NCBI GenBank assembly: GCA_035687405.1
Contig: DASRXR010000480.1
Location: forward strand, 1-55,601
DNA: 55,601 nt
Reading direction: 5' to 3'
DNA from: Polyangiales bacterium
Lineage (GTDB): Bacteria > Myxococcota_A > Polyangia > Polyangiales > JAFGIB01
Position 1 is the first letter of the stretch; each line of letters opens with the position of its first letter. Shown piece by piece: positions 6,333-44,261 of the stretch. The translations under genes and the position numbers were made by a program. A model generated the notes under the pieces. It was not told the origin of the DNA. It worked only from the letters and a program-made list of their open reading frames with translations, and did not search any database.

Positions 6333-6460
6333 TTCACGCGATGCTGGCACTCCGCGTTCGCATGCTTATGTCGAGCGCGGTGTGGCCAACCTCGCTTGCA
6401 TCGTGCAGTGCCGTTGGCTAGTTCGCCGCGTTGGAACCCGTTTTGCCAGGGGCTTTGCAC

Positions 6461-7738
6461 ATGAAATTCTCAAGCGTGCTCGTGTTCGCTCTGTTCGTCG
6501 TGATGTGGCAGGGCTGTGACGACAATAAGAGCGAACAACAAGGCGGTATCCGCGACGACGATGGTGGAATACAGGACTCCAGCGTGAAGTCCGATAGCGG
6601 TAGCGGGCAGTCGAAGGACGCTGGCGACGATGGTGCGGGTAGCGGCGGTTCGGGTGGCACTTCGGGGTCTGGAGGCGAGGGCGACAGCGCTGGAGCCGGA
6701 GGCGAAGGCGTAGACACCGGCGGTGCAGGCAACGCGGGCGCGCCGGCAGCCGGAGCAGGTGGAATGAGTGGTGCGGGCGAAAGCGTCGCCGGAGCGGCGG
6801 CGAGTGGCGCTGGCAGTGGCGGCGCAGCCGGCACCGCTGAAGCAGGTGCCGGTGGCAGCGCGGGTGCCGGTGAAACCGCGGGCGCGGGCGGCGAATCGGG
6901 AACTGGTGCTGAAGCTGGTAGCGGCGGCGATGCCGGTAGCGGCGATGCCGGTGAGCCGAGCGACAGTCGCTGCGGAACGCGCGGCGGCGCAACCTGCGGC
7001 GACGCACAGTTCTGCAACTTCCAACCAGAGCCGAACCAGGAATGCGGCGGAACCGATCGCGGTGGCGTGTGCGAAGACAAGCCGCAGATTTGCAACGACC
7101 TGTATGAACCGGTCTGCGGCTGCGACAACCGCACGCACGCAAACGTTTGTTTCACGCATCTCGACGGCGTTTCGTTGAAGCACGAAGGGCTGTGCACGCG
7201 GGCCGAGTGCTCGTCCGCCGGCGGTCACGCAGTGTTGAGCGATGGCGCGAGCCAGCCGACGTGTGGGCAGGGCGAACGAAGCTGGAGCATCGACAGCGGC
7301 GGCGATGAGCCAGCCGTGTGTTGCGTGCAAGAGCAATCGAGCGGTCGGACGTGCGGTGGGATCGCCGCGCTCCAATGCGATACGCGCGAGTTCTGCAACT
7401 ACGAAGCGAGCGCGGGCGGTCAAGGTTGCGATGGAACGGTCAGCGATGCGGGCGGCATCTGCCAGGCGGTCCCGACCGTGTGCACGCGCGAGTACAATCC
7501 TGTCTGCGGTTGCGACAAGAAGTCGTACAGCAACGCGTGTGAAGCGCACTCCGTCGGCGTTGCGATCCTGCACGAAGGTGCGTGCACCGAGCTCGATTGT
7601 GCATCCGTGGCAGGTCGCGTCGTCTACGCGCCGGGTCCCGCTGCGATGTGCGCGCCGGGTGAAAACGAGTGGACCTTCGTCGTGAACAGCAGCGGATCGA
7701 TGGCGATCGAAGGCGCGATTTGCTGCCGGCAGCAGTGA
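6461..7738 (+). CDS. lipoprotein with an acidic Gly-rich linker and two Kazal-type (non-classical, 10-Cys) modules
   Basis: ORF 6431..7738, trimmed to the ATG at 6461 (MKFSSVLVFALFVVMWQGC, a lipobox). The two Kazal cores are ICNDLYEPVCGCDNRTHANVCFTHLDGVSLKHEGLC and VCTREYNPVCGCDKKSYSNACEAHSVGVAILHEGAC. Each is followed by a related ~45-aa Cys module. Confidence 0.75.
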   Translation: MKFSSVLVFALFVVMWQGCDDNKSEQQGGIRDDDGGIQDSSVKSDSGSGQSKDAGDDGAGSGGSGGTSGSGGEGDSAGAGGEGVDTGGAGNAGAPAAGAGGMSGAGESVAGAAASGAGSGGAAGTAEAGAGGSAGAGETAGAGGESGTGAEAGSGGDAGSGDAGEPSDSRCGTRGGATCGDAQFCNFQPEPNQECGGTDRGGVCEDKPQICNDLYEPVCGCDNRTHANVCFTHLDGVSLKHEGLCTRAECSSAGGHAVLSDGASQPTCGQGERSWSIDSGGDEPAVCCVQEQSSGRTCGGIAALQCDTREFCNYEASAGGQGCDGTVSDAGGICQAVPTVCTREYNPVCGCDKKSYSNACEAHSVGVAILHEGACTELDCASVAGRVVYAPGPAAMCAPGENEWTFVVNSSGSMAIEGAICCRQQ

Positions 7739-7794: not shown

Positions 7795-8067
7795 TCGGTA
7801 AACTGCGGACGAACCCCGGATGCCAATGGGTTCGCGTACTTTCCGAAGCTGATGGCTGCAAGACGCCAGGTCGCCTACATGTATGCGACGAGGTTGATGT
7901 GCGTTGGCACGCGTGCAGCTCGTAGCTGCACACATCCACCTTCTTGACGCCAGTGCAAGCTTGGAACAGCGTAGCCAACTGAGCCATGTCGTGTCTGTCG
8001 CGGGCACATAAGCATGGGCGGTACGCACTCTGTCGAGCGTACCGGTGGGCAATCAAGAGGTGTAGGA

Positions 8068-10074
8068 ATGGCGCGTAACTCGGCCGATGTCGTCGATCAT
8101 GAGATCGACGCAATGTTGTCTGCGGGCGATCACGACCAGGACGAAGCGGATGCACTCGCTGCGATCAACGAGAGTTGGTTCGACGAGTCGGAGCGTACCG
8201 GGGTGCTGGAGCCGCGCCACTTGCTGGCGCAGCTGCTCCCGCACTCGGCAGTTGCAGCCGAGTCGCGAGCGCGCGAGCCGGCTTCCGAGCAACGCCCGAT
8301 TCAACGCGCGCAGGTTTCAGCGGACGAAGATCCGAGGTGGGATGACGCGAGTGAGATGACCTCGTACGGCGAAGGTGATCGTCCCGCGTCTCTGGAAGTG
8401 CTCGACCTGAGCGGCACGGCCGAGTGGGAAGAAGAAGCGAAGACCGAGTACTTCGAACGCACCGCAAACTTCGAGCTACTCGATTCGACGTTCGTCAGTG
8501 AGTACACGGACCGGTTGCCCGGCGGCTTGAGCGAGCTCCTCTCGAGCGACGCAGACTCGGCGGCTTCCGCGCGTCCGAAGCCGCAACGCAAAAGCGGAGT
8601 GCGCGAGTCGGCTCGCGTGCTGCCGGCGGCCGCGTTGCTCGCTGAACCATCAGAGCTGCGCGACCCGCGCGAGGTCAGTTCACACTTCGCGTATGAAGTT
8701 GCACCCGAGACCCTGCCGGCGTCGAAGCAGACGCAGCGCTCCCTTCCGGTTGGCTCGCGCCCCACGCTTGCGCGCAAATCGAAGGCGTCGAGTCCCAAGC
8801 CTACGTTGAAGCGCCGCACAGGCTCGGAGACGATTCGCGATCGCGGTCGTGCGACCGTGCGAGCGGAGTCGATCACGAGCGATCCGATCGACTTCGAGCC
8901 GGACGCGTTGAACTTCGACGACGCGTCGGTTGCAACCGTGCGCGGAGGCCGGCGCTTCGCACCGAAGTCGGATAGCGTCTCGCAGCGGTCGACCGTCTCG
9001 CAGCGGACGGCGGCAGCACCTCGCAAACTCTCGAAGCCGGCGCCATCGCAGCCAGCCGCAACTGTCCCCGCGCAGTGGCTCGCGTCGCAGCCCACGCCGG
9101 TACCGACGTACGACACCGACTCGTTGCGTCCGCTCGTCGCGCGCAGCACGCGCCCCTCCGTGCCCTCGCAACCGGCCGCGCTCCCCGTGACGGCGGGCTA
9201 CGATTCCGACTTCGCCGAGCTACGTGCGCATCGGCGGCATCAAATCGCCGCGTGGGTCTGGCTCACGGCGAGCGCGCTTTCGGGCGTGGCGCTGATCCTC
9301 GGGATCCGCTCTTGGACGACGCAGCCGCTGCCGATCGCTGAGCCGACGCAGCAGCCGTCCGTCGCACTCGAAACGACGGTGAATGCGGCGCAGCAAGAGG
9401 AGAACGGCTTTTCGATCACGAGCCGACCAGAAGGCGCACAGATCTTCGTGGATGGAAAGCCGACTGGCTTCATCACGCCGGCGAGCATCAAGCGCTTGTC
9501 GCCGGGTCTGCACTCGGTGGAGCTCAAGCTCGACGGCTACTACGACACGACTTTGCCTGCCGCGTTGTCGGAGCACTCGACGCTCGAGCTCGCGCCGGTC
9601 GAGATGCGGGAACATCCGGCTTCGTCGCCCATCGCTGCCGCGGCTCCCACGGGCGCGATCGTCCCGAAGCTGATAGCGGCATCGCGTAGCCACGGGAAGA
9701 GCCGCGAGACACGTCGCTGGCATCGTCGTGGCATCACGCGCAACGCGCCGGTGCGCCTCTTGGATGAACGCGACACGGCCAGTGCGTCCGCGGCTGACGG
9801 TGCGGGCACACTTCGAATCAACAGCCGCCCATGGGCGCGCGTGATGGTCGACAACAAGTTCGTCGGCAACACGCCGCAGCGCGGGCTGAAAGTCGCGGCT
9901 GGTGAACACAGCGTGAAGCTCGTGAACGAGCCGCTCAACATGAGCAAGACGTTCCGAGTCGTCGTCCGCGACGGCGAGACGGTCACGCGCGTCGAGATGC
10001 TCAACGAAGACTCGGACCGATCGCAGGTCTCGCGAGCTTCGTCGAGCGATGCTTACGCGAAGGCCGGCCGCTGA
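8068..10074 (+). CDS. PEGA domain-containing membrane protein
   Basis: ORF 8014..10074; I prefer the ATG at 8068 (MARNSADVV, preceded by GAGG). The N-terminus is acidic, followed by a long Ser/Pro/Ala-rich disordered region and one TM segment (IAAWVWLTASALSGVALILGI). Two PEGA-type modules follow: ITSRPEGAQIFVDGKPTGFITPASIKRLSPGLHSVELKLDGY and LRINSRPWARVMVDNKFVGNTPQRGLKVAAGEHSVKLVNEP. Confidence 0.75.
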   Translation: MARNSADVVDHEIDAMLSAGDHDQDEADALAAINESWFDESERTGVLEPRHLLAQLLPHSAVAAESRAREPASEQRPIQRAQVSADEDPRWDDASEMTSYGEGDRPASLEVLDLSGTAEWEEEAKTEYFERTANFELLDSTFVSEYTDRLPGGLSELLSSDADSAASARPKPQRKSGVRESARVLPAAALLAEPSELRDPREVSSHFAYEVAPETLPASKQTQRSLPVGSRPTLARKSKASSPKPTLKRRTGSETIRDRGRATVRAESITSDPIDFEPDALNFDDASVATVRGGRRFAPKSDSVSQRSTVSQRTAAAPRKLSKPAPSQPAATVPAQWLASQPTPVPTYDTDSLRPLVARSTRPSVPSQPAALPVTAGYDSDFAELRAHRRHQIAAWVWLTASALSGVALILGIRSWTTQPLPIAEPTQQPSVALETTVNAAQQEENGFSITSRPEGAQIFVDGKPTGFITPASIKRLSPGLHSVELKLDGYYDTTLPAALSEHSTLELAPVEMREHPASSPIAAAAPTGAIVPKLIAASRSHGKSRETRRWHRRGITRNAPVRLLDERDTASASAADGAGTLRINSRPWARVMVDNKFVGNTPQRGLKVAAGEHSVKLVNEPLNMSKTFRVVVRDGETVTRVEMLNEDSDRSQVSRASSSDAYAKAGR

Positions 10075-12207
10075 TCAGCGCTTGTTCTTGTAACCGGCGT
10101 AGTTGAGAGCGGCTGGGATCTCGGCCTTCGAGACCTTCGCCGACGCGAGTGCTGCACTGGCCTCGTCTGCCGGTACTTCGTTCAAGCGCAACGCCAGCGC
10201 TACATCGCCCGGCGAGTAGTTCGACTTGCGCATGCTGTCCGCGATCTCCGTCGTCGGCGCGCCGAGCTTCTTCAACGCCTTTGCAACGAACGTGCGATCG
10301 GTTCCGGTTTCCTTCAACACGCCCGCGATGTCCTTGCGCGGCGTGCCCACGTCCGTGAGCGCAACTGCGATTTCGACCGGCTGGCACTTCGCGTCTTTGA
10401 GCCCGTTCGCGAGCTCGGTCTTGTTCGCCTTCGGAAAACCCTTGGCGACCTCGCTGCAGGTGAAGCCCGCGGTCTTGAGCGTGACTGCCGTCTTCGAAAG
10501 TGTCGCGCCATCGCCCTTCGTATCTTCGACGATCATCGGCGGTGTGTACCCCGCAGCCTTCAGCGTCTTGATCGTCTCGTCCTCGCTCAAGTTGAGCTTA
10601 CGCAGGCTCGCGACGATCTCCGGCCGTTTCACGCCGCTGCTCTTCAGCCCGGTGACAACTTCCGCCGGCGCCATCCCGCCCGCCTTCAACCCGAGTGCGA
10701 TCTCCGTGATCTTGTACTTCGCGGCGACGAGTGCACTGACTGCATCCTGCGGCGGCACACCCGCAGCGATGAACGCGCTCGAGAGATCGCCCGCGGCAAC
10801 GCCTTTCGTTTGCGCGGTCGCTGCGACGGACTTCGCAGTCGACTTCGCCGCGAGCAGCGCCGTCGCGATCGACTTCCACGGCATGTTCGCGCCTTGCATC
10901 GCCTCGATCATTTGCGAATCGGTCAGCTTGTTATCGCTCAGTGCCTTGCCGATCTCCGCATCCGTCGCCTTCTGTTGCTGCATCACCGTCACGAGCTCAG
11001 CCGGCTTTACACCGATCGCCTTGAGTGCACTCGCGCGCGCCGACGGGTCGGCATCGGCGACTTTCAACCCGCGCACGATGTTCGCCGCGTCGAAGCCGAC
11101 ATCCTTCAATGTGACCGCGATCTGATCGTAACTCTTGCCCTGCGACTTGAGCTCCTTTGCGAGATCACCCGCGAACACTTTGCCATCGCGCAGCGCGCTT
11201 GCGACTTGCGGCGGCGTGAGCTTGCGATCTTTCAGTGCAGCGGCGATGTCCGTGCCGGATTGATTCGCGCCTTTGAGCAGGACCACGATCTTTTCCGGCG
11301 CGACTCCCGCGAGCGAGAGCGCTTCTGCAACCTGAGTCGTGGTGTCACCGTACTTGATCAGCGCGCTCGTGATCTCCGCTTCGTCGACGCTGCTCTTCTG
11401 CAACGCACCGACGACCTCGCTCGGCTTGTACTTCGCCTGGGAAAGACCCGCGACGATCTCCGGCGTCCCGGCGTTGAGCGCCTTCAAGATCCCGACGATC
11501 TCGAGCGGCGTGAACGTGAATCGCAGCCCGGTTGCGATCTCAGCCGACTCGGTCAGCCCAAACGCGCCCAGGCCTTGGCCGATCTCCGCCTTCGAGTAAG
11601 CCGCATCGCGCATCGCTGCTGCCGCTTGCTTCGCATTTGCGCCATCCGACTTGAGTTCCGCCGCAGCTTCGCTCCCCGTCGCCTTCTTTTGCTTCAACTC
11701 TTTGGCCTTGGCGGTCCAGCTCGCCGCATCGGCGGGCCGAGCTGCTGTCGCGGACGGCACGACCGCATTCGACACCACGGGTGCAGGCGCGGGCGTCGGC
11801 CGCGGACCCATCGTTGGGCCGCCGGGGCCGCCGGGGCCGCCGGGGCCGCCGGGGCCGGCGGGCGCGGTAGGCGCAGGTGCAGGCGCGAGAACCGGTGCCG
11901 GTGCGGGGGCCGGAGCCGAAGCCACAGCTACTTGGGGAGGAGTTTTGTCACTTGCAGAATTACCTTTGTCGCTCGCTTGTTGAGCGAGCTTTTCGGCCTG
12001 TGCTTTCAGTTGGTCGGCCTGCTCCTTGAGCACCTCGGCTTGCTTCTTCAACTGCTCGGCTTGCTGCTTGAGCTCGGCCCTTTGTTGTGCGTCCGAGCTC
12101 GCGTTTGCGCTCGGCGCGATAGCGGGCTTTTTAGCCGGCTCCGCGAGAGCACTGGTGACCGGCACAGCGCATACGAAAAACAGCACTGTACGTGCGGCAA
12201 ACCTCAT
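10075..12207 (-). CDS. secreted repeat protein: signal peptide, coiled-coil-like segment, Pro/Gly-rich spacer, then 38 tandem short helical units
   Basis: 710 aa. Signal MRFAARTVLFFVCAVPVTSALA|EP. Heptad-like QQRAELKQQAEQLKKQAEVLKEQADQLKAQAEKLAQQ. Spacer APAPAPAPVLAPAPAPTAPAGPGGPGGPGGPGGP. Residues 178-705 parse into 36 units of exactly 14 aa plus two of 12 aa. Confidence 0.8.
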   Translation of the reverse strand: MRFAARTVLFFVCAVPVTSALAEPAKKPAIAPSANASSDAQQRAELKQQAEQLKKQAEVLKEQADQLKAQAEKLAQQASDKGNSASDKTPPQVAVASAPAPAPAPVLAPAPAPTAPAGPGGPGGPGGPGGPTMGPRPTPAPAPVVSNAVVPSATAARPADAASWTAKAKELKQKKATGSEAAAELKSDGANAKQAAAAMRDAAYSKAEIGQGLGAFGLTESAEIATGLRFTFTPLEIVGILKALNAGTPEIVAGLSQAKYKPSEVVGALQKSSVDEAEITSALIKYGDTTTQVAEALSLAGVAPEKIVVLLKGANQSGTDIAAALKDRKLTPPQVASALRDGKVFAGDLAKELKSQGKSYDQIAVTLKDVGFDAANIVRGLKVADADPSARASALKAIGVKPAELVTVMQQQKATDAEIGKALSDNKLTDSQMIEAMQGANMPWKSIATALLAAKSTAKSVAATAQTKGVAAGDLSSAFIAAGVPPQDAVSALVAAKYKITEIALGLKAGGMAPAEVVTGLKSSGVKRPEIVASLRKLNLSEDETIKTLKAAGYTPPMIVEDTKGDGATLSKTAVTLKTAGFTCSEVAKGFPKANKTELANGLKDAKCQPVEIAVALTDVGTPRKDIAGVLKETGTDRTFVAKALKKLGAPTTEIADSMRKSNYSPGDVALALRLNEVPADEASAALASAKVSKAEIPAALNYAGYKNKR
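10093..11676 (-). repeat. array of 42-nt coding repeats (14-residue protein units), diverged at DNA level
   Basis: Example consecutive units: VKRPEIVASLRKLN / LSEDETIKTLKAAG / YTPPMIVEDTKGDG / ATLSKTAVTLKTAG / FTCSEVAKGFPKAN ... APTTEIADSMRKSN / YSPGDVALALRLNE / VPADEASAALASAK / VSKAEIPAALNYAG. Residues 190-595 form 29 units with no phase break. Confidence 0.85.
11816..11857 (-). repeat. perfect 9-nt microsatellite, (GGGCCGCCG) x4 plus a 6-nt partial unit, in frame
   Basis: Read directly: gggccgccg at 11816, 11825, 11834 and 11843, then gggccg. On the minus strand it encodes the PGGPGGPGGPGGP segment of the repeat protein. Confidence 0.9.
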
Positions 12208-12790
12208 GGCGTCACACTCCCCTTAAGACGGCGTGAGACTAACCTGCGAACGCGTTCGGATGATAGAGCGGACGACACATGCTGATATGTACTGATTGTC
12301 CAGTTGTCTCATCTGGGTAGAGTCCGTGGCGCGGATGCCGTGAATTGCGCACGTGACGTTTGGAAGCGAACGCTCTCAATTCGAGTCCATTGCTGATGAG
12401 AATCAGCGGCAAAGTGAGACTCGATTTGCTCATCGGGTGGCACAACTAGACCAGCGTGGCTCGCCGTGATTGGCGTGATGGATGAAGTCGAGAGCGGATT
12501 GTTGGTTGCAGCCGTCAGCTGCGGTTGTTTGATGATGGTGGTCATTGAAGTGGCGTCGGGCTTGCCGTCGCCGTCGCCGTCAACGTCAACGACGTGAACC
12601 AGCCACCAACCGCTAGCTGACGCGGTTGTCATTCTTGGGTTGAGCTAGGACTTTCCCGCGCCAGGGAATGCTACCCTGGCGCCGTGTGTTGCAAGCGGTC
12701 GTAGCCACGGGTGCGCGCAGCGCTCGGCCGCGATCCCGCGCGGGTCCCGTACGCGCCCGCTTCTGCTTGCACGAATTGGAAGGAATGCTC

Positions 12791-13660
12791 ATGCGATTGA
12801 ACTCCCGGTGCATCTCGCTGTGCGTCTGTATGTGTCTCTTCTCGACTGCGTCGCTCGCGGCTGCACAACAACAAGCCGCGCCTGAATTGCCCCAACCGAG
12901 CCCGAAAGCGCGCATCGAGCAGCGCGTTGGGCTGACCGACTTCTCGGTCGACTACTCGAGCCCCGGCGTGAAGGGTCGCAAGATCTGGGGCGAGCTCGTG
13001 GCGTACGACAAACCGTGGCGCACCGGCGCGAACGCCGCGACGAAGCTGACCGCCAGCCGCGACTTCACGTTTGGAGGCAAGCCAGTGCCCGCCGGTAGCT
13101 ATGCGCTGTATACGGTTCCGGGGAAGACGGCGTGGCAAGTCGCTCTGAACACGAGCACTGACGCTTGGGGCAACGACGGCTTCGACGTCAAAAAGGACGT
13201 CGTTCGCGTGAGCGTGACGCCACAAGCGATCAAGGGTCGCGAGCGTCTGACGTTTCTGTTCAGCGACACGAGCGATGACGCAGTTCGCGTCGAGCTCGAG
13301 TGGGAAAAGCTGCGGGTCAGCATTCCGATCACTGTCGCGACCAAGCAGCAGGTGTTGACCGGGATCGACAAGGCAGTCGACGACGCATGGCGGCCCCACT
13401 TCGTGTCCGCGCGCTACCTGCTCGACAACAACGGCGATCTCACGAAGGCGCTCGGCTACATCGATCAATCGATCGCGATCAAGCCGACGTGGTGGAACAA
13501 CTGGGTCCGCGCGCAGATCCTCGCGAAACAAAACCGCGCGCAAGAAGCCGTCGCGACCGCGGAAAAAGCACTGCAGCTCGGCACCGGTGACCGCATGTTC
13601 GAGTCGTTCTTCAAAGAGGAAGTCACGAAGACGGTCGCTGGCTGGAAGAAGAAGGGCTGA
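12791..13660 (+). CDS. DUF2911 domain protein with a C-terminal TPR-like region, secreted
   Basis: ORF 12668..13660, trimmed to the ATG at 12791 (GGAAGGA upstream; MRLNSRCISLCVCMCLFSTASLAAAQ signal). FSVDYSSPGVKGRKIWGELVAYDKPWRTGANAATKLTASRDFTFGGKPVPAGSYALYTVPGKTAWQVALN matches my memory of the DUF2911 core. Confidence 0.8.
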   Translation: MRLNSRCISLCVCMCLFSTASLAAAQQQAAPELPQPSPKARIEQRVGLTDFSVDYSSPGVKGRKIWGELVAYDKPWRTGANAATKLTASRDFTFGGKPVPAGSYALYTVPGKTAWQVALNTSTDAWGNDGFDVKKDVVRVSVTPQAIKGRERLTFLFSDTSDDAVRVELEWEKLRVSIPITVATKQQVLTGIDKAVDDAWRPHFVSARYLLDNNGDLTKALGYIDQSIAIKPTWWNNWVRAQILAKQNRAQEAVATAEKALQLGTGDRMFESFFKEEVTKTVAGWKKKG

Positions 13661-13670
13661 GCACCAGCGC

Positions 13671-15260
13671 GTGACCGCGAGTATTTTCGACGCCTATCTG
13701 TCCGGCGGCGCAGGCGAGTTCTTTCCGAGCTCGTTTCTGCGCGCCGAGGATCGGCTTCGCGCGGTCGAACGGGCTGGGCGAATCACTCCGGCGGTGCTGT
13801 CCAGGCTCGAAGCGCAAAACGCGCGCTTCGGGCCGAGCCGAGCGCGCGCAGCGAATCTCGAGTCGCTCGCAGCTGGCGCGGCGGTGGTGGTCACCGGGCA
13901 GCAAGTCGGCTTGTTTCTCGGCCCGCTCTACACCGTCTACAAAGCGGCCACCGCGGTGCGCTGGGCACGTGCGCTCACTGAGCAAACCGGACGGCAGGTC
14001 GTGCCGGTGTTTTGGTTGCAGACCGAAGATCACGATCTCGAGGAGATCGCGCACTGTACCGTGGAGCGGCCACAGGCGGACCCGCTCCCACTCACAGTCC
14101 CGATCGAAGCCCACAACCACGTGTCGATCGCACATCTGGCGTTGCCGGAGTCGATTCGCGCGTGTCACGCGACGCTCGAAAGTGAGCTCGGCGGACTACC
14201 TGAAGCGCGGGTGCATCTCGACCGACTCGCACGACACTACCGGCCGGGTGCGCGCTGGAGCGACGCGTTTGCCGGAGTCTTGGCCGAGCTGTTCGAGCCG
14301 GAAGGGCTGCTCTTGATCGATCCGCGAGAGCGCGCGCTGGCGATCGAGTTGCGCGCGTTGCATCGCGCGGCGCTCGACAAATCGGAAGCCATCGGGACGC
14401 TATTGGTCGCTCGGCGCGATGCGCTCGAAGGCGCGGGTTACGAAGCGATCGTTCACGTGCGACCGGATGCGCCGCTCGCGTTTTTTCACGCCGAGGGTCC
14501 GGAGGGTCCGCGCCATCGGTTGGCGCCGTCGGGCGTGCGCCTGAGTGAGATCGGCGGCACCCGCAGCCATGAGCTGCCGGCGTTGCACGCGACGCTCGAG
14601 CGCGATCCGCTGTGCTTCAGCACGAGTGCACTACTCCGGCCGCTCGCGCAGGACACCCTGCTGCCCACGGCGGCGTACGTCGGCGGGCCGGCGGAAGTCG
14701 CGTACTACGCGCAGCTCGCGCCGCTGTACGCCGCGTTCGGAAAAGAGCTGCCACTCGTCGTACCACGCGCGCGATTTCGCGTGATCGAGCCGGCCGCCGC
14801 GCGGTTGTTGCAGCGCCACGGGCTCGAGCCGAGTGCGGCTGAGATGAGTGAGCAGGCGCTCTTACGCAAGCTCGCTTCGAGCGGTGACGGCGCGCCCGCG
14901 CCAGAGGCCTTCGCGTCGGAGCTGCGATCCGAGCTCGAAGCGGTGCTCGCGCGTGCTCTTGCAACGCTGCCGGAGCCGCTCGCTGCGCTCTCGGGGACGA
15001 TCGCAAAGACCCGGGCCAAGCTGGAGACGACCAGTCGAAAGCTCGCGGAGCGGTACGCCGACGTTCGAGCCACCGCCGACGAAGCGAGAGTGCGCGACGT
15101 ACGGCGCTTGCGAGTGATGTTGCAGCCGAACGGCGTGCCGCAGGAGCGCGAGTACGGCCTCGCGTACTTTGCCTCGAAGCTCGGTGAGCGCGCGTTTCTA
15201 GAGCGGGTGCTGCAGGCGATCGATCCATTCGATGCCGCGCGCAAGGAGTTGTGGTTATGA
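13671..15260 (+). CDS. bshC: bacillithiol biosynthesis cysteine-adding enzyme BshC
   Basis: ORF 13587..15260, trimmed to the GTG at 13671 (10 nt after the previous stop). It is collinear with B. subtilis YllA/BshC as I recall it. Shared motifs are VVVTGQQVGLFLGPLYTVYKAATAVRWA, VPVFWLQTEDHDLEEI, LLRPLAQDTLLPTAAYVGGPAEVAYYAQL and PQEREYGLAYFASKLG. Confidence 0.8.
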   Translation: MTASIFDAYLSGGAGEFFPSSFLRAEDRLRAVERAGRITPAVLSRLEAQNARFGPSRARAANLESLAAGAAVVVTGQQVGLFLGPLYTVYKAATAVRWARALTEQTGRQVVPVFWLQTEDHDLEEIAHCTVERPQADPLPLTVPIEAHNHVSIAHLALPESIRACHATLESELGGLPEARVHLDRLARHYRPGARWSDAFAGVLAELFEPEGLLLIDPRERALAIELRALHRAALDKSEAIGTLLVARRDALEGAGYEAIVHVRPDAPLAFFHAEGPEGPRHRLAPSGVRLSEIGGTRSHELPALHATLERDPLCFSTSALLRPLAQDTLLPTAAYVGGPAEVAYYAQLAPLYAAFGKELPLVVPRARFRVIEPAAARLLQRHGLEPSAAEMSEQALLRKLASSGDGAPAPEAFASELRSELEAVLARALATLPEPLAALSGTIAKTRAKLETTSRKLAERYADVRATADEARVRDVRRLRVMLQPNGVPQEREYGLAYFASKLGERAFLERVLQAIDPFDAARKELWL

Positions 15261-16429
15261 CACTGACTCGCGCGCGCACGGTCGCGATCGTTTGTTATCC
15301 GAGCCTGGGCGGCAGCGGCATCATCGCGAGCGAGCTCGGGGCAGGGCTGGCGCAACGTGGCCACACTGTCCACGTCATCGCAAGCTCGCAACCGAGCCGC
15401 GCGCTCCCTGTGTGCTCGCGCTTGTTCTTCCACGAGGTCAGTGCGCCGAGCTATCCGTTGTTCGAACAAGCGCCGTACACACTCGCGCTGGCTTCGACGA
15501 TCGCGCGCGTCGTTGGAGACCATCACATCGACATTGTGCACGTTCACTACGCGGTACCACACTCCGCGAGCGCGTATCTCGCACGCCAAGCACTCGGAGC
15601 CGCTGCGCCGCGGCTCGTGACGACACTGCACGGCACCGACGTCACGCGAGTCGGTGCCGATCCGAGCTATCAAACCATCACCCGTTTTTGCGTCGAAGCA
15701 TCGGATGCGATCAGCGTGCCTTCGGAGTATCTGCGCGAACAAGCCTGGAGCGCGCTCGGTATTTCAGCGTCGATGCCGATCGACGTCATTCCCAACTTCG
15801 TCGACGTCGATCGGTTTCGCAAACTCGAAGTGCGGGAGCCCCAACGCTTCGACGAGCTGTTCGAGGACTCGTCGACCGGGCCGCTCCTGTGTCACGTCTC
15901 CAATTTTCGCTCGGTGAAACGCGTCACGGATCTGCTCGAAGTGCTCGCTCGCGTCCGGCGCACGCTGCCGGCGAGGTTGTTGCTCGTCGGCGATGGTCCG
16001 GACCGGCCGGCCGCCGCGGCTCGCGCGCGCAGCCTCGGCATTCAGCGGAACGTTTGTTTTCTCGGCAAACGCTCGGACTTCGTCGACTTGCTGCAGCATG
16101 CCGATGTTTTCGTGCTCACGAGCGAGACCGAGAGCTTCGGCTTGGCAGCGCTCGAAGCTCTCAGCTGCGGTGTCCCGGTCGTCGGTTATCGCGTCGGCGG
16201 CGTTCCCGCGGTCGTGACCGAGGACGTCGGACGACTCGTCGCACCCTTCGATCTCGATGCGCTGGCAGCCGCCGTCGTGGAGGTCGTGTCCGAGCCAGCG
16301 TTGCGGGAGCGACTCGGCGATCGAGGCCGCGAACGCGTGCTCGCTAACTTTCGGCGCGAACCGGCGCTCGACGCGTACGAGCGCCTGTACGATCGCGCGC
16401 TGGCGGATCGCGGAGCTTCCGGAGCATGA
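15257..16429 (+). CDS. bshA: N-acetyl-alpha-D-glucosaminyl L-malate synthase BshA (GT4)
   Basis: ORF 15251..16429. The ATG at 15257 gives an ATGA overlap with the bshC stop. Motifs VAIVCYPSLGGSGIIASELGAGLAQRGHTVHVI, HVHYAVPH, TTLHGTDVT, HVSNFRSVKRV, LLLVGDGPD and ETESFGLAALEALSCGVPVVG are collinear with B. subtilis YpjH/BshA from memory. Confidence 0.8.
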   Translation: MTLTRARTVAIVCYPSLGGSGIIASELGAGLAQRGHTVHVIASSQPSRALPVCSRLFFHEVSAPSYPLFEQAPYTLALASTIARVVGDHHIDIVHVHYAVPHSASAYLARQALGAAAPRLVTTLHGTDVTRVGADPSYQTITRFCVEASDAISVPSEYLREQAWSALGISASMPIDVIPNFVDVDRFRKLEVREPQRFDELFEDSSTGPLLCHVSNFRSVKRVTDLLEVLARVRRTLPARLLLVGDGPDRPAAAARARSLGIQRNVCFLGKRSDFVDLLQHADVFVLTSETESFGLAALEALSCGVPVVGYRVGGVPAVVTEDVGRLVAPFDLDALAAAVVEVVSEPALRERLGDRGRERVLANFRREPALDAYERLYDRALADRGASGA

Positions 16430-19107
16430 TGCGTTTTCACGCGGTGGTTCTCGGTTGTGTGCTCGCAGTGCAGCCCGTGCGAGCACAGGAGGTGGCGATG
16501 GATGCGGGAAGACTCGCGCACGCGCTGGACCGGCTCTCGAGCACGGCGCGGGTGCTGTACGTCGCGGCGCATCCCGACGACGAGAACACGCGGCTGCTCG
16601 CCTACCTCGCGAACGCCCGGCACGTGAATGCGACCTATCTGTCGATGACGCGCGGAGGCGGCGGCCAGAACCTGATCGGACGCGAACAGGACTCGATGCT
16701 CGACGTGCTGCGGACGCAGGAGCTGCTCGCGGCGCGGCGGCTCGATAGTGCGCGCCAGCGGTTTACGCGCATGCGCGACTTCGGCTACTCGAAGTCGGCG
16801 CAGGAGACGCTTTCGATTTGGGGCCACGACGACGCGCTCGGCGACGTGGTGCGCGCGATTCGCTCGCTCCAGCCCGATGTGATCATCACGCGCTTCGACG
16901 AAAAGCCGCCCAACCACGGGCATCACACGGCATCGGCGATCCTTGCGCGCGAAGCATTTAGCGCTGCGGCCGATCCGAAGCAGTTTCCGGAGCAGCTCAC
17001 GCAAGGGCTGGCGGTGTGGCAGGCGAAGCGTCTGCTTCAAAACTGGCCGTTCTGGAAAGACGAGCAACCGCCCGCGGGCGCGATCAGCTTGGACGTCGGC
17101 GGCTACGACGTGCGGCTCGGCCTGTCGTACGGCGAGCTCGCAGCGCGTTCGCGCAGCCAACACAAGAGTCAGGGTTTTGGTGCAGCCGGTGAACGCGGGC
17201 CGCTGATCGAGCGGTTCGTCCAGGTTGCGGGGACACCTGCGACGGATGATCTCCTCGATGGAGTCGAGCTCGGCTGGGCGCGTTACGGAGCGCCCGGTCG
17301 AGTCTTTGCGGCGGCATTGCAAAAGGCGCGAAGTGCGCTGCACCGGGATTACCCGGAGCGCGCTTTGCCCGGGTTGGCGGAAGCCTGGCGAGCGCTTGCA
17401 GCGCTACCGGCAGCCGAACCGCGCGTGCGAGATGCGAAGACTGACCTGGCGAAGCTGATGGCGGCGGCGAGCGGGCTGTACGTTCGCGCGAATGCGACCA
17501 AGCCTGCGTGTTCGCCCGGCTCGATCACGCCGGTGCGCGTGGAGGTCGTGTTGCGTCGCCCCGCAGTCTTGCGGCTGTCGAAGCTGACGCTGCCGGATGG
17601 ATCTCCTGCCCCGCTGGCGCCGACCCCTACGCTGAAGACTGGCGCGGCCGAGCACGCGTGGCCGCCCAAGGATGCGCTCGCATCGACAATCGTCCCGGAC
17701 AGCGCGCTCCAGCTTGCGGCACAAGCGGTTCCGCAAAAGAGCCCGCAGCTGGCAGCTGCGGGGCAGGTCGCGCCGGTGCCGGCCGCCAGCACGACTGACC
17801 CTGCGGTGCTCGGGGTGCACGAGAAGCGTGAGATCAGCATCGAGCTCAAATGTCCTGCCAGCGCCGCTGTTTCGACGCCGTATTGGCTCGCCCAACCGCC
17901 CGAAGCCGGGCACTTCGTTCTCTCCGATCCGAACCTCGCCGATGATCCGGAAGGCAAACCGCCGCTGATGGCTTCACTCGACGTGAACCTCGCCGGCGTC
18001 GATCTCCGCCTTCCCGTTCCGGTCGTGTACACTTGGCTCGACCGCGTGCATGGGGAGCGCGAACGCCGCGTGCAGATCGAGCCTCCTGCGACCGCCACGC
18101 CCGCGCGCGACGCGGTCATGTTTCCGAACGGCCGGAGCGCAAAAGTGATCCTTCGCGTCCGCGCTGCGAAAGACGCGCTCGACGCTCGTGCGTTCTTGCG
18201 CTTACCGCCCGGCTACAAAGCCGAGCCCGCCGAGCAACGCGTGCAGCTCGCACGCCAGGGTGACGACACGACTGTCGAGTTCGTGGTCACGCCGCCGGCA
18301 GCCGCGAAGACTCCTGTGACCTCACGTGTGTACGCCGAACCGGTGATCGCAGTCGAGGGCCGCGACTACTCGTATCGCGAAGACGTGATCGACTATCCGC
18401 ACGTACCGCTACAAACAGTCCTGCAACCCGCGCGGATTCGGCTGTCGTCAGTGGCGCTCCAAAAGCCGCGCGGGCTCATCGGCTACGTCGAAGGCTCGGG
18501 TGACACGATCCCAGCCGACCTCGCGCACATCGGCGCGCAAGTCGAGTTGCTCAGCGACGCCACGCTGCTCGAGGGTGACTTGTCGCGCTTCTCCGCGATC
18601 GTGCTCGGCGTGCGTGCGTACAACACCCGCGACGTGCTTCCGCGCGTCCACGCTCGGTTGACGAAGTTCGCGGAGCAGGGCGGAACCCTGGTCGTGCAGT
18701 ACGTCACGCGCAGCTCGATCTCTCCGCTCGATGCGCCGGTCGGCCCGTATCCACTCGACGTCGGTCGTGGTCGCGTGACGGACGAAAACGCCGCCGTCCA
18801 CGCGATCGATCCCAACGATCGCGTGTTGCGCAGCCCGAACAAGATCGGACCCGAAGACTTTGCCGGTTGGGTTCAAGAGCGAGGCTTGTACTTCGGCGAA
18901 AAGTGGGACGAGCGCTACAAGCCCGTGTTCGAGATCGCCGATCCCGGAGAGCCCGCGCAACGCGGCGCGTTGTTAGTCGCGAAGGTCGGCCGTGGCCGCT
19001 ATGTCTACACCGGCCTCGCGTTCTTCCGGCAGTTGCCGGCAGGCGTGCCCGGCGCCTACCGCTTGTTTACGAATCTCTTGGCGCGCGCCACCGACGAGGC
19101 GCCGTGA
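16426..19107 (+). CDS. large PIG-L/LmbE-family deacetylase with an N-terminal signal peptide and a C-terminal GATase1/ThuA-like module
   Basis: 893 aa. The ATG overlaps the bshA stop (ATGA). Signal-like MMRFHAVVLGCVLAVQPVRA|QE. PIG-L motif VLYVAAHPDDENTRLLAYLANARHVNATYLSMTRGGGGQN. The C-terminal part reads GLIGYVEGSGDTIPADL...FSAIVLGVRAYNTRD...GGTLVVQYVT...GRYVYTGLAFFRQLPAGVPGAYRLFTNLL. Confidence 0.8.
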   Translation: MMRFHAVVLGCVLAVQPVRAQEVAMDAGRLAHALDRLSSTARVLYVAAHPDDENTRLLAYLANARHVNATYLSMTRGGGGQNLIGREQDSMLDVLRTQELLAARRLDSARQRFTRMRDFGYSKSAQETLSIWGHDDALGDVVRAIRSLQPDVIITRFDEKPPNHGHHTASAILAREAFSAAADPKQFPEQLTQGLAVWQAKRLLQNWPFWKDEQPPAGAISLDVGGYDVRLGLSYGELAARSRSQHKSQGFGAAGERGPLIERFVQVAGTPATDDLLDGVELGWARYGAPGRVFAAALQKARSALHRDYPERALPGLAEAWRALAALPAAEPRVRDAKTDLAKLMAAASGLYVRANATKPACSPGSITPVRVEVVLRRPAVLRLSKLTLPDGSPAPLAPTPTLKTGAAEHAWPPKDALASTIVPDSALQLAAQAVPQKSPQLAAAGQVAPVPAASTTDPAVLGVHEKREISIELKCPASAAVSTPYWLAQPPEAGHFVLSDPNLADDPEGKPPLMASLDVNLAGVDLRLPVPVVYTWLDRVHGERERRVQIEPPATATPARDAVMFPNGRSAKVILRVRAAKDALDARAFLRLPPGYKAEPAEQRVQLARQGDDTTVEFVVTPPAAAKTPVTSRVYAEPVIAVEGRDYSYREDVIDYPHVPLQTVLQPARIRLSSVALQKPRGLIGYVEGSGDTIPADLAHIGAQVELLSDATLLEGDLSRFSAIVLGVRAYNTRDVLPRVHARLTKFAEQGGTLVVQYVTRSSISPLDAPVGPYPLDVGRGRVTDENAAVHAIDPNDRVLRSPNKIGPEDFAGWVQERGLYFGEKWDERYKPVFEIADPGEPAQRGALLVAKVGRGRYVYTGLAFFRQLPAGVPGAYRLFTNLLARATDEAP

Positions 19108-42821: not shown

Positions 42822-43946
42822 CTACTGATCCATCATCTTACGCATCGTGGTCCAGGTCGCCGTGTCTTTGCAGACTGAGCAGTCGCCGTAGAACATCGGG
42901 CGAAGGGCCGTGTCGTTCATGAGGTGAACGCGGAACCACGCGGTCGTGATCACCCAGAAGGGATTGAACGCACCGGCCGAGAAGATCCAGTTCGTGTGGT
43001 CGGCGGCCTTGAGCTCGGCGTACATCACAGGTTGGTTCGTGACGGCGTTGAACGCGCTCAGGTTTTGAGCGCAGGGCAAGGTCGTGTCCATGCCTCCGCA
43101 CAGTGCGAGGGCTGGACCGTGGAGCGAGCGAGCTCGGCTCAAGATCTCAATCGGGGCAATCGTCTTGATGCGTTCGTCTGCGCCCGCGCTAGTCGAGGCG
43201 ATGGCGCCTTGCGAGTGCCCCGTCGCGCCGATGCGATCTCGGTCGACGTGACCGAAGAGCGGCGTGCCAGCAGTCGTGTCCTGCTCCAGCACCCACGTCA
43301 CTCCGTCGAGCATGGGCGGGGGCATTCCTTGTCCGACGTTCATGCTGTTCGACGCGATCACGATGAAGCCGTGCGATGCGTAGAGCGAGAGCATCCGGCC
43401 GTACGTGGGCGGCGTCGTACCAGTGCCGTTGCCCCACGTGATCACGGGGTGGCGCTGGGTGAGATCTTTCGGGCGGTACATCGTGTACGCCATGTTCGGG
43501 CCGACCATCGTCTCCGTGACCGTCGCAAACGGACCCATCTTTGCGGGGTCGGCTGCCGGCCACGTGCCGGGCGGTCCGGCGGGCGGCGGCGGCGTCACCA
43601 TGCCGCTGCCAGCTGCAGGCATCCCTGGTGCTGGCACGCCGGCTGCACCGCTCGGGGGTGGGCGATTCGGCATGGTCGGAGGCGGAATCACCGGGCCGGG
43701 GCTGCCGCCGATGGCTGCAGGCGATCCGGCGACCCCTGGCGTGATGCCGCTACCAGCTGTACCGGTGCCGGTTCTGCCTGCGAGGGCGCTGCCGATCGTG
43801 CCGCCCGTCGCGCCTGCCGTTGCCGTGCCGCCGGACCCGCCTTGCGTAATGCCGCGCGGACCGCTGTCGGTGTCGCTGCCGCAGCTCGCGCCGACGAGAC
43901 TGACGCACAAAGCGAGGCAGCTAGTTGCGAGTCGCTGGTTTGCCAT
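42822..43946 (-). CDS. secreted alpha/beta hydrolase lipoprotein (cutinase/dienelactone-hydrolase-like) with a Gly/Pro-rich linker
   Basis: ORF 42822..44177, trimmed to the ATG at 43946 (MANQRLATSCLALCVSLVGASC lipobox, 374 aa). Motifs are HPVITWGNGTGTTPPTYGRMLSLYASHGFIVIASNS, the nucleophile elbow GATGHSQGA, and a late ADH. Confidence 0.7.
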   Translation of the reverse strand: MANQRLATSCLALCVSLVGASCGSDTDSGPRGITQGGSGGTATAGATGGTIGSALAGRTGTGTAGSGITPGVAGSPAAIGGSPGPVIPPPTMPNRPPPSGAAGVPAPGMPAAGSGMVTPPPPAGPPGTWPAADPAKMGPFATVTETMVGPNMAYTMYRPKDLTQRHPVITWGNGTGTTPPTYGRMLSLYASHGFIVIASNSMNVGQGMPPPMLDGVTWVLEQDTTAGTPLFGHVDRDRIGATGHSQGAIASTSAGADERIKTIAPIEILSRARSLHGPALALCGGMDTTLPCAQNLSAFNAVTNQPVMYAELKAADHTNWIFSAGAFNPFWVITTAWFRVHLMNDTALRPMFYGDCSVCKDTATWTTMRKMMDQ

Positions 43947-44261
43947 CGAGTACCTCCGTGTACCGTTCCTGCACACGAGGTATGTCCCTTTGAGCGACCG
44001 CTCAAGCCCACAATTGGGACGCGTGGCGCAAAGAGATCCGAAATCGCTGGCAACTTTCCCGAGTAGTCGCGGGCATTTGCCTTCATACGCCAACGACTGT
44101 GAACCTTCGAGGACACGTAGCGTCGACAGCCAGTACGCCGCGCACCACTCGTGATCGGTCACGCGCGCCGGTGACATTTCAATAGTTGCAAACGCTAGTC
44201 GGGCGCTTGCGTTGGCTCACTCCAACATCGTATCGAGGACGCAATCGGTGGGGGCGGATGC

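Follow-up and report, generated by a model that had tools for sequence, protein, structure and literature searches.

A probable array of 14-residue, one-helix repeats in a putatively exported protein of a Polyangiales bacterium

We examined a 55,601-nt stretch of DNA from a Polyangiales bacterium (contig DASRXR010000480.1 of GenBank assembly GCA_035687405.1), hereafter called the window, and in particular a gene on its minus strand that encodes a 710-residue repeat protein. We consider it probable that this is a real exported protein, that its C-terminal 530 residues are an array of 14-residue units with one helix in each, and that this array is one member of a sparse family that has no entry in the libraries that we searched. 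The gene and its parts lie at the following positions, with the basis of each in parentheses.

10075..12207, minus strand: open reading frame (ORF) of the repeat protein, 710 aa plus stop (ORF listing, GC content at third codon positions [GC3], homologues)
12217..12224, minus strand: Shine-Dalgarno-like AAGGGGAG, 9 nt 5′ of the ATG at 12207 (read from the sequence)
12142..12207, minus strand: Sec-type signal peptide, residues 1–22 (read from the translation)
11959..12096, minus strand: Leu/Ala heptad (xxLKxQA) helix, presumed coiled coil, residues 38–83 (AlphaFold2, DNA period, orthologue)
11728..11958, minus strand: low-complexity Pro/Ala/Gly linker, residues 84–160, with PAPAPAP... and GPGGPGGPGGPGGP (predicted local distance difference test score [pLDDT], microrepeats, the orthologue at locus L004)
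10093..11676, minus strand: array of 38 units (36 of 14 aa and 2 of 12 aa), residues 178–705 (register, autocorrelation, column counts, AlphaFold2)
10423..11514, minus strand: strict-phase block of 26 units, residues 232–595 (register print, column counts)
10078..10386, minus strand: last 7 units and ...YAG[YF]K tail, residues 608–710, a candidate partner-binding tip (conservation)

Residues 176–705 held their register when laid out in rows of 14, and the autocorrelation of residues 178–705 (BLOSUM62, compared with 200 shuffles) peaked solely at lags of 14, 28, 42, 56, and 70 (z = 13.8, 14.1, 10.1, 11.2, and 9.9, respectively), with z < 2.5 at all other lags. An earlier, sequence-only reading of this DNA had parsed the region into 38 units, and this parse adds up (12 + 29 × 14 + 12 + 7 × 14 = 528 residues), with the period of 14 borne out by the autocorrelation. 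The four units that it quoted as examples are all present in the translation. It had also placed 29 consecutive units in perfect phase over residues 190–595; this was true of the 26 units spanning residues 232–595, but a local +1/−1 register slip ran through units 204–231. Unit 554–567 was degenerate, with a short helix and a dip in pLDDT, and unit 596–607 had 12 residues.

The units differed considerably from one another. Mean pairwise identity was 22% at the amino acid level and 42% at the DNA level, the DNA maximum was 64%, and Tandem Repeats Finder called no repeat inside the array, all in line with the earlier remark that the units are well diverged in their DNA. The same reading had suggested that units might pair into a 28-residue double unit, and this suggestion found no support: units at even and odd separations were equally alike (p = 0.77), and super-periods of 3, 4, 5, or 6 units gave no signal (p > 0.13). 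With no detectable super-period, all units, and the helices within them, appear structurally equivalent.

Column counts gave the following preferences within the unit, reproducing the consensus quoted previously.

Position 1: V, F, Y, L, or M
Position 2: T, S, D, or K
Position 3: P or A
Position 5: E, Q, or D
Position 6: I or V
Position 7: A or V
Position 9: A or G
Position 10: L in 20 of 26 units
Position 11: K or R
Position 13: A
Position 14: G, N, or K

From these counts we define the family consensus as hydrophobic-[TSD]-[PA]-x-[EQD]-[IV]-[AV]-x-[AG]-L-[KR]-x-A-[GNK], and the window array shows both this consensus and the 14-residue period. Interpreted by established helix-capping rules, position 1 reads as a putative hydrophobic staple (N′), position 2 as the N-cap, position 3 as a proline at N1, position 5 as the acidic N3 of a capping box, and position 6 as N4, while the K/R at position 11 would lie near the helix C-terminus and the Gly/Asn at position 14 would be C′. 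Signals to start and to stop a helix therefore recur every 14 residues, which is evidence, independent of any structure predictor, for a 10-residue helix followed by a 4-residue turn. On a helical wheel drawn from the consensus, one contiguous face of roughly 160° is made up of positions 6, 7, and 10 and of the small residues at 3, 9, and 13, a pattern that agrees better with helices wrapped about a shared core than with a flat ribbon.

Structure prediction agreed with this picture. We ran AlphaFold2 on single sequences and took confidence and secondary structure as its outputs. In the full-length model, a disordered signal peptide was followed by a long helix (residues 38–83), a disordered segment (83–158), and then 39 short helices over residues 161–703 at a spacing of 14, most of them with 10 residues, at pLDDT ~85–93; the predicted template modeling (TM) score, or pTM, of the whole chain was 0.51. 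A 112-residue fragment (residues 232–343) reached a mean pLDDT of 88.4 and a pTM of 0.79. The array was thus predicted as regular helices every 14 residues rather than as disorder, and the helix-plus-turn unit proposed earlier is supported by the capping signals and, independently, by AlphaFold2. The one-helix units are predicted to stack as a solenoid. A Foldseek search of the full model against PDB returned only de novo designs and generic solenoids, with TM-scores of ≤0.22, and the fragment matched nothing at E ≤ 1e-3 in PDB or BFVD, its best global TM-scores being 0.46–0.51. Some 55–56 columns of the fragment, or about four units, superposed on three-helix bundles such as the Pex14 N-domain at a root-mean-square deviation (rmsd) of 2.1–2.6 Å, with non-significant E-values.

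A homologue search with the whole protein was empty, probably because low-complexity N-terminal words swamped its list of 8000 candidates. A word-indexed search with the array alone found a single homologue, P0001, of 674 aa, which is 36% identical over 99% of the array. The orthologue-like proteins were P0001, P0014, P0024, P0044, and P0051, and the orthologues all came from metagenomes. Two pattern scans of 185,579 GTDB species genomes and one of JGI metagenomes, all based on orthologue alignments, gave no orthologue, although each scan used two peptide patterns and is weak evidence of absence.

As to unit number, for which the sequence-only reading had recommended a survey of homologues, the array of P0001 differs from that of the window protein by exactly one whole unit (a 14-residue insertion) and by a 2-residue indel that restores a 12-residue unit to 14, with unit-by-unit identity kept. 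For 13 of 33 units, the P0001 unit at the same position was the best match of all 33, where about 1 would be expected by chance. From unit 316 onward, most same-position P0001 units ranked first or second; the N-terminal units 232–315 showed no positional conservation against P0001. Positions 4, 8, and 12, which lie on the surface, were two to three times better kept between orthologous than between paralogous units. This unit-by-unit orthology with a homologue of only 36% identity upholds the view that the array is a maintained fold rather than a recent expansion.

Conservation was greatest at the C-terminal end, in the final seven units with their ...YAG[YF]K tail. Across residues 608–710, the same-position P0001 unit was the best or second-best match for all seven units, and the invariant columns of a three-sequence alignment clustered in this block. 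A further orthologue, at locus L004, was 60% identical over residues 559–713. This frameshifted copy lies on a low-coverage contig; a signal peptide, heptads of the form QQADLLKQQ, and an Ala/Pro linker are present in it as well. A third case came from the edge of locus L005, where a syntenic gene of 692 aa, divergent from a DUF2911-BshC-GT4-PIG-L block, begins with MRFAARTALLLVSLPLASALAEPAKK (only this N-terminal start was read). The alanine racemase of this close relative is 87% identical to that of the window. In a second close relative, the contig stops short of this locus, and a more distant Myxococcales genome was not syntenic there.

The N-terminal parts of the protein are of a different kind. 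By eye, the signal peptide begins with MRFAAR, continues with the hydrophobic core TVLFFVCAVPVTS, and ends with SALA, with cleavage expected before EP; the motif MRFAART...SALAEPAKK is kept in the syntenic orthologue. Because that orthologue has Ser at the position of Cys13, we do not take this cysteine for part of a lipobox. From the sequence, we infer that the window protein is exported, and Cys584 and Cys608, present in both the window protein and the L004 orthologue, are consistent with an oxidizing compartment. Residues 38–83 combine what is looked for in a coiled coil, namely a heptad pattern (five xxLKxQA heptads) in a single long AlphaFold2 helix (pLDDT 74–87), and they show a 21-nt DNA period, for which Tandem Repeats Finder called 2.9 copies at 12014–12073. 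This segment is 56% identical in the L004 orthologue. The linker that follows had pLDDT below 50 over residues 83–158 and contains DNA repeats of its own, one of 9 nt × 5.2 at 11816–11862 encoding (GPG)n and one of 6 nt × 4.5 at 11892–11918 encoding (PA)n; the Ala/Pro-rich linker of the L004 orthologue is its counterpart. Such slippage-prone microrepeats may explain why the window protein and the syntenic orthologue differ in length (710 vs. 692 aa).

To look beyond orthologues, we built a profile (A2) from ten non-overlapping 42-aa segments of the array, having discarded overlapping segments since MAFFT staggered them by identity. Among 1.84 billion proteins, its matches at E ≤ 1e-3 comprised 242 cluster representatives, of which 49 also passed E ≤ 1e-10. 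The self-similarity period of the matched region (n = 151) was 14, 28, 42, or 56 in 47 cases, 29, 44, or 58 (14 + 15 types) in 97, and another value in 7. This check makes no use of HMMER statistics, and its outcome (144 of 151 at multiples of 14 or at 29, 44, or 58) gives independent support for a family. The consensus of the relatives was [YF]-[ST]-x-x-[EQ]-I-A-x-A-L-K-x-A-G. Judged by these sequence comparisons, the repeat is not unique to the window protein and is shared by a sparse family, whose members P0001–P0150 have the unit consensus and the period in common with the window protein. Unlike the window protein, most of them have a 29-residue (14 + 15) double unit and other flanking domains.

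The relatives had no dedicated Pfam or NCBIfam family; where their totals exceeded a threshold, these were sums of partial matches with no individually significant stretch. Their source names were “hypothetical” or spurious (methyl-accepting chemotaxis protein, lambda repressor-like, RecX), and the named sources included Micrarchaeota, Chloroflexota, KSB1, Omnitrophota, and Paenibacillus roseus. Of the 43 period-14 proteins that start with Met, about half (24) scored as having a hydrophobic N-terminal segment in a crude test of hydropathy.

Several relatives carry the repeat in recognizable surroundings. In P0035, P0037, and P0061, a membrane anchor is followed by a 14-residue array and then by a TrbI domain. 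P0037 (8001–10004 of L008) stands in a Dot/Icm locus for type IVB secretion, where it follows DotI/IcmL and DotH/IcmK and is also flanked by IcmT; because of this locus and the domain order, we take it for a DotG/IcmE homologue with the 14-residue repeat as its variable middle region. P0035 and P0061 are likewise read as DotG/IcmE homologues. P0132, from Paenibacillus roseus, is one of the SLH-domain proteins; CARDB domains stand at the end of P0012 and P0013; and P0121 carries a C39 peptidase domain. P0005 (7217–12949 of L002; 982 aa) has a signal peptide and period-14 repeats and lies directly 3′ of two pilin-like N_methyl genes and a DUF7305 gene, a setting that suggests a link to a type IV pilus or a type II secretion-like apparatus. 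Many period-29 arrays form the C-terminal end of proteins of 1200–2500 aa without recognized domains. Viewed jointly, such settings point to a modular spacer or scaffold outside the cytoplasm.

We also observed two shared layouts among the relatives. P0006, P0007, P0017, P0105, and others, giant proteins of 1200–2500 aa that terminate in long arrays of the 29-residue (14 + 15) version, have in common an N-terminal region of ~1200 aa with no Pfam match, one of these proteins coming from a Chloroflexota metagenome-assembled genome (MAG). P0114 and P0077 consist of a signal peptide, an array, a strongly hydrophobic, predicted transmembrane stretch in mid-protein, and a second, acidic array, which would imply repeat arrays on both sides of the membrane.

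Comparison with described families gave no identification, in agreement with the earlier statement that no standard alpha-repeat family has a 14-residue period: Pfam, NCBIfam, PDB sequences, and Foldseek all came back without a family or fold match. No Pfam or NCBIfam model reached its cutoff with the window protein. The best Pfam match, DUF7626 (PF24625), scored 24.2 bits against a gathering cutoff of 27, with 0 significant stretches and 26 residues of a 55-column profile covered, and UBA_3 (15.7 bits vs. a cutoff of 20.4) and HTH_53 (12 vs. 30.6) fell further below. TPR, Sel1, HEAT, ARM, ANK, PPR, and TALE were not listed in the Pfam scan even at E ≤ 10 and were absent for the relatives too. 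A PDB sequence search with the whole protein found no significant match. With the A2 unit profile, the only significant PDB sequences were de novo designs derived from DHR4 (E = 1e-15 to 5e-9), and natural proteins began at E = 0.085, among them the Ddi1 UBA domain (0.15), the Tn3 resolvase HTH (0.47), and the RuvA C-terminus (2). A literature search for 14-residue or single-helix alpha-solenoids and for DUF7626 returned nothing relevant.

The gene itself is monocistronic: a PEGA-domain gene converges on it, and a DUF2911/TPR gene diverges from it. Its GC3 is 0.77 over the whole ORF and 0.80 in the array, similar to that of neighboring genes. Two plus-strand shadow ORFs (10226–11125 and 10810–12285) were dismissed for their atypical codon-position GC, and what they match in L001 and L004 is the real gene, read in antisense. 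Operon context was rejected as a guide to function because L001 and L004 do not share the neighbors. Among named sequences, the alanine racemase of the window was closest to those of Myxococcales and Polyangiales MAGs, at 77–78% identity.

Some neighboring genes are worth recording in their own right. The PEGA-domain protein (8014–10074, plus strand; 686 aa) contains two PEGA domains, and its long N-terminal half is of low complexity; its stop codon, ending at 10074, abuts that of the repeat gene (10075–10077, opposite strand) with zero intergenic gap. On the other side, the plus-strand segment 13587–19107, with a counterpart at 1650–7083 of L005, has the look of a complete block for bacillithiol-type biosynthesis, here in a Myxococcota genome. 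It comprises BshC (13587–15260), a GT4 glycosyltransferase (15251–16429; 80% identical to the GT4 of L005), and a protein with a PIG-L deacetylase domain (16426–19107) that is unusually long at 893 aa. The order BshC-GT4-PIG-L is kept in two related metagenomic contigs. Farther away, a 435-aa ORF at 6431–7738 (plus strand) has Kazal-type serine protease inhibitor domains (Kazal_1, E = 4e-12), which are uncommon in bacteria, and a 451-aa ORF at 42822–44177 (minus strand) has a PET-hydrolase-like domain (PF12740, E = 3.7e-12).

We propose the following account of how the protein might work. Cleavage of the signal peptide would leave an exported protein of three parts. The 45-residue Leu/Ala heptad helix would probably oligomerize, and the Pro/Ala/Gly tether of ~75 residues would give reach, for which OmpA, with its Pro-rich hinge, and TonB, with its Pro-rich spacer, offer analogues. 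The remaining 528 residues would form an alpha-helical solenoid of 38 one-helix units, each a self-contained capped helix, and this array would serve as a rigid, length-defined rod or ruler in the periplasm or at the cell surface, with its conserved C-terminal units binding a specific partner. From typical solenoid spacing, we estimate very roughly that a rod of 38 helices would be 13–20 nm long. The proposal of a scaffold or ruler draws indirectly on the preservation of unit number and unit identity, on the spacer position of the repeat in DotG, and on the SLH and CARDB partners of relatives. As an account of function, a rigid rod or scaffold with a partner-binding C-terminal end is tentative, and we rate it somewhat short of an even chance. 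Taken jointly for structure and function, the account is our best explanation overall, and we regard it as evenly balanced between right and wrong.

Several points weigh against this account. Only two of the five fragment models were confident (pLDDT 88, 86, 61, 44, and 42), and both structure models are alignment-free, so the stacking geometry, the length of the rod, and its rigidity all rest on such models. HMMER E-values on Ala-rich repeats may be optimistic. The DotG, SLH, and CARDB contexts belong to distant relatives, and the window protein has none of these domains. The repeat gene comes without operon evidence for a function, its neighbors not being kept in L001 or L004. Finally, P0001 and P0044 lack both the heptad coiled coil and the linker, which indicates that these parts are not essential to the role of the family.

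Other explanations need to be weighed alongside a rod or scaffold. The array might instead be a ligand- or protein-binding adaptor or a chaperone, comparable to periplasmic TPR or Sel1 proteins, in which a long concave surface rather than length or rigidity was under selection. Alpha-solenoids are typically protein–protein interaction modules (PMC11514114), and both the unit-specific conservation of surface positions and the strongly kept C-terminal block would suit this role. Still, no partner gene is linked, units 232–315 lack positional conservation, and the relatives place the repeat as a spacer, in the gap between the DotG anchor and TrbI or next to SLH; we consider an adaptor unlikely. 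A secreted matrix protein or adhesin, either released or displayed on the surface to bind extracellular polysaccharide, cells, or prey, could be expected to have a signal peptide and neither lipobox nor membrane anchor, as observed here, and CARDB and SLH domains occur in relatives. Myxobacteria secrete many matrix proteins, which also counts in favor. However, Pfam and NCBIfam scans found no recognizable adhesion, lectin, or sorting domain, and the present data do not separate a periplasmic from an extracellular location, leaving this explanation less plausible than an adaptor.

Two further alternatives concern the array more directly. It could be a string of independent, marginally stable amphipathic helices on which AlphaFold2 is overconfident because the repeat is so idealized: the predictions are alignment-free, three of five fragment models had low confidence, the full-length pTM was 0.51, and the best matches were de novo designs, a class on which AlphaFold2 is known to be confident. 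Yet the core at positions 6, 7, and 10 and the small residues at 9 and 13 are kept in every unit and throughout the family, which would be unexpected if the helices stood alone. Constraint over the long term is indicated by the positional orthology at 36% identity, and the fragment pTM was 0.79, so a mere string of helices seems improbable to us. Last, the array could read a linear polymer (extracellular DNA, glycan, or peptide), each unit recognizing a single monomer, much as TALE, PPR, and PUF proteins do. Such a reader would be expected to have numerous equivalent units whose variable residues fall at set positions, as they do here at 4, 8, and 12, and designed PPR proteins were among the weak Foldseek matches. 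Against it, the array is nearly neutral in charge (63 K/R vs. 58 D/E), the variable positions show no two-state or code-like alphabet, the PPR matches had TM-scores of ≤0.27 at E of about 0.8, and the protein is apparently exported; we give this possibility hardly any credence.

Returning to the rod or scaffold, we compared the predicted array with known systems. The likeness to canonical alpha-solenoids is that helical units in tandem would, as predicted, stack into an array that is elongated rather than globular, and three window units, with 42 aa and three helices, equal one ARM repeat in length. The TPR unit has 34 aa and the ANK unit 33, and ARM has three helices. The units of canonical solenoids have two or three non-equivalent helices and ~30–44 residues; unlike them, the window unit has 14 residues and a single predicted helix, with no super-period of two or three units and no match to a hidden Markov model. 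The helices within a canonical unit also occupy differing environments, whereas those of the window array appear equivalent. The leucine-rich variant (LRV), a 24-residue alpha/3-10 repeat, had no match in the Pfam scan, and the window period is 14. The alpha-solenoid families in one review (ANK, ARM, HEAT, PPR, PUF, Sel1, TAL, and TPR) are all multi-helix repeats, with units of 31–36 residues in PPR, 36–44 in Sel1-like repeats, and 42 in ARM (PMC11514114); if the prediction holds, the window unit is far shorter.

Among natural proteins, a local resemblance is seen to UBA, CUE, and HTH three-helix modules, which share with the window array helices of ~10 residues, G-[YF] or G-x-S turns, and a helix spacing of ~14 residues. 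This likeness explains the partial, sub-threshold matches to UBA_3, UBA_DHX29, CUE, HTH_38, RecX_HTH, and DUF7626, as well as the non-significant best natural PDB matches (Ddi1, Tn3 resolvase, and RuvA). However, those modules are closed domains of 40–55 aa, and the window array is open and repeats the motif 38 times. A model of the family would correct the wrong names (“RecX,” “lambda repressor-like,” and “MCP,” for methyl-accepting chemotaxis protein) that arise from summed partial HTH and UBA matches.

The top sequence and Foldseek matches were DHR4 and its derivatives (PDB 5cwb, 8cwy, 8cws, and 7mwr), through AEIVEALKRSGTSEDEIAE, which comprises an idealized helix end, a G-T-S loop, and a capping box; the match spans 19 residues per repeat. 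Unlike the window array, DHR4 is designed and has two long helices per ~50-aa repeat, and TM-scores were 0.08–0.46 at an rmsd of 9–34 Å. The likeness is one of convergent textbook capping signals, not of homology.

For function, an analogy is offered by the variable middle repeat region of the VirB10 family (DotG/IcmE and CagY), a periplasm-spanning repeat whose exact place, between the N-terminal anchor and TrbI, is taken by the 14-residue array in P0035, P0037, and P0061. The window protein differs in having neither a TrbI match nor a membrane anchor. In Legionella, the middle region of DotG consists of pentapeptide-type repeats, and DotG links the inner-membrane complex to that of the outer membrane (PMC6761968). 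Finding the 14-residue array in the middle region of DotG/IcmE, and beside SLH and CARDB elsewhere, suggests a reusable envelope-spanning spacer. It falls just below an even call, in our judgment, that the repeat represents an undescribed natural class of alpha-solenoid, built from a single capped 10-residue helix and a 4-residue turn, that serves as a length-setting rod in the envelopes of bacteria and archaea, including some trans-periplasmic segments of DotG. The tandem helical repeat and the alpha-solenoid are known kinds, and the 14-residue, one-helix capped unit without a super-period is new to Pfam, NCBIfam, and PDB. If the prediction is true, this unit is among the shortest-period helical repeats known and the natural equivalent of idealized de novo designs; as a compact self-capping block, it may also be useful for engineering repeat proteins.

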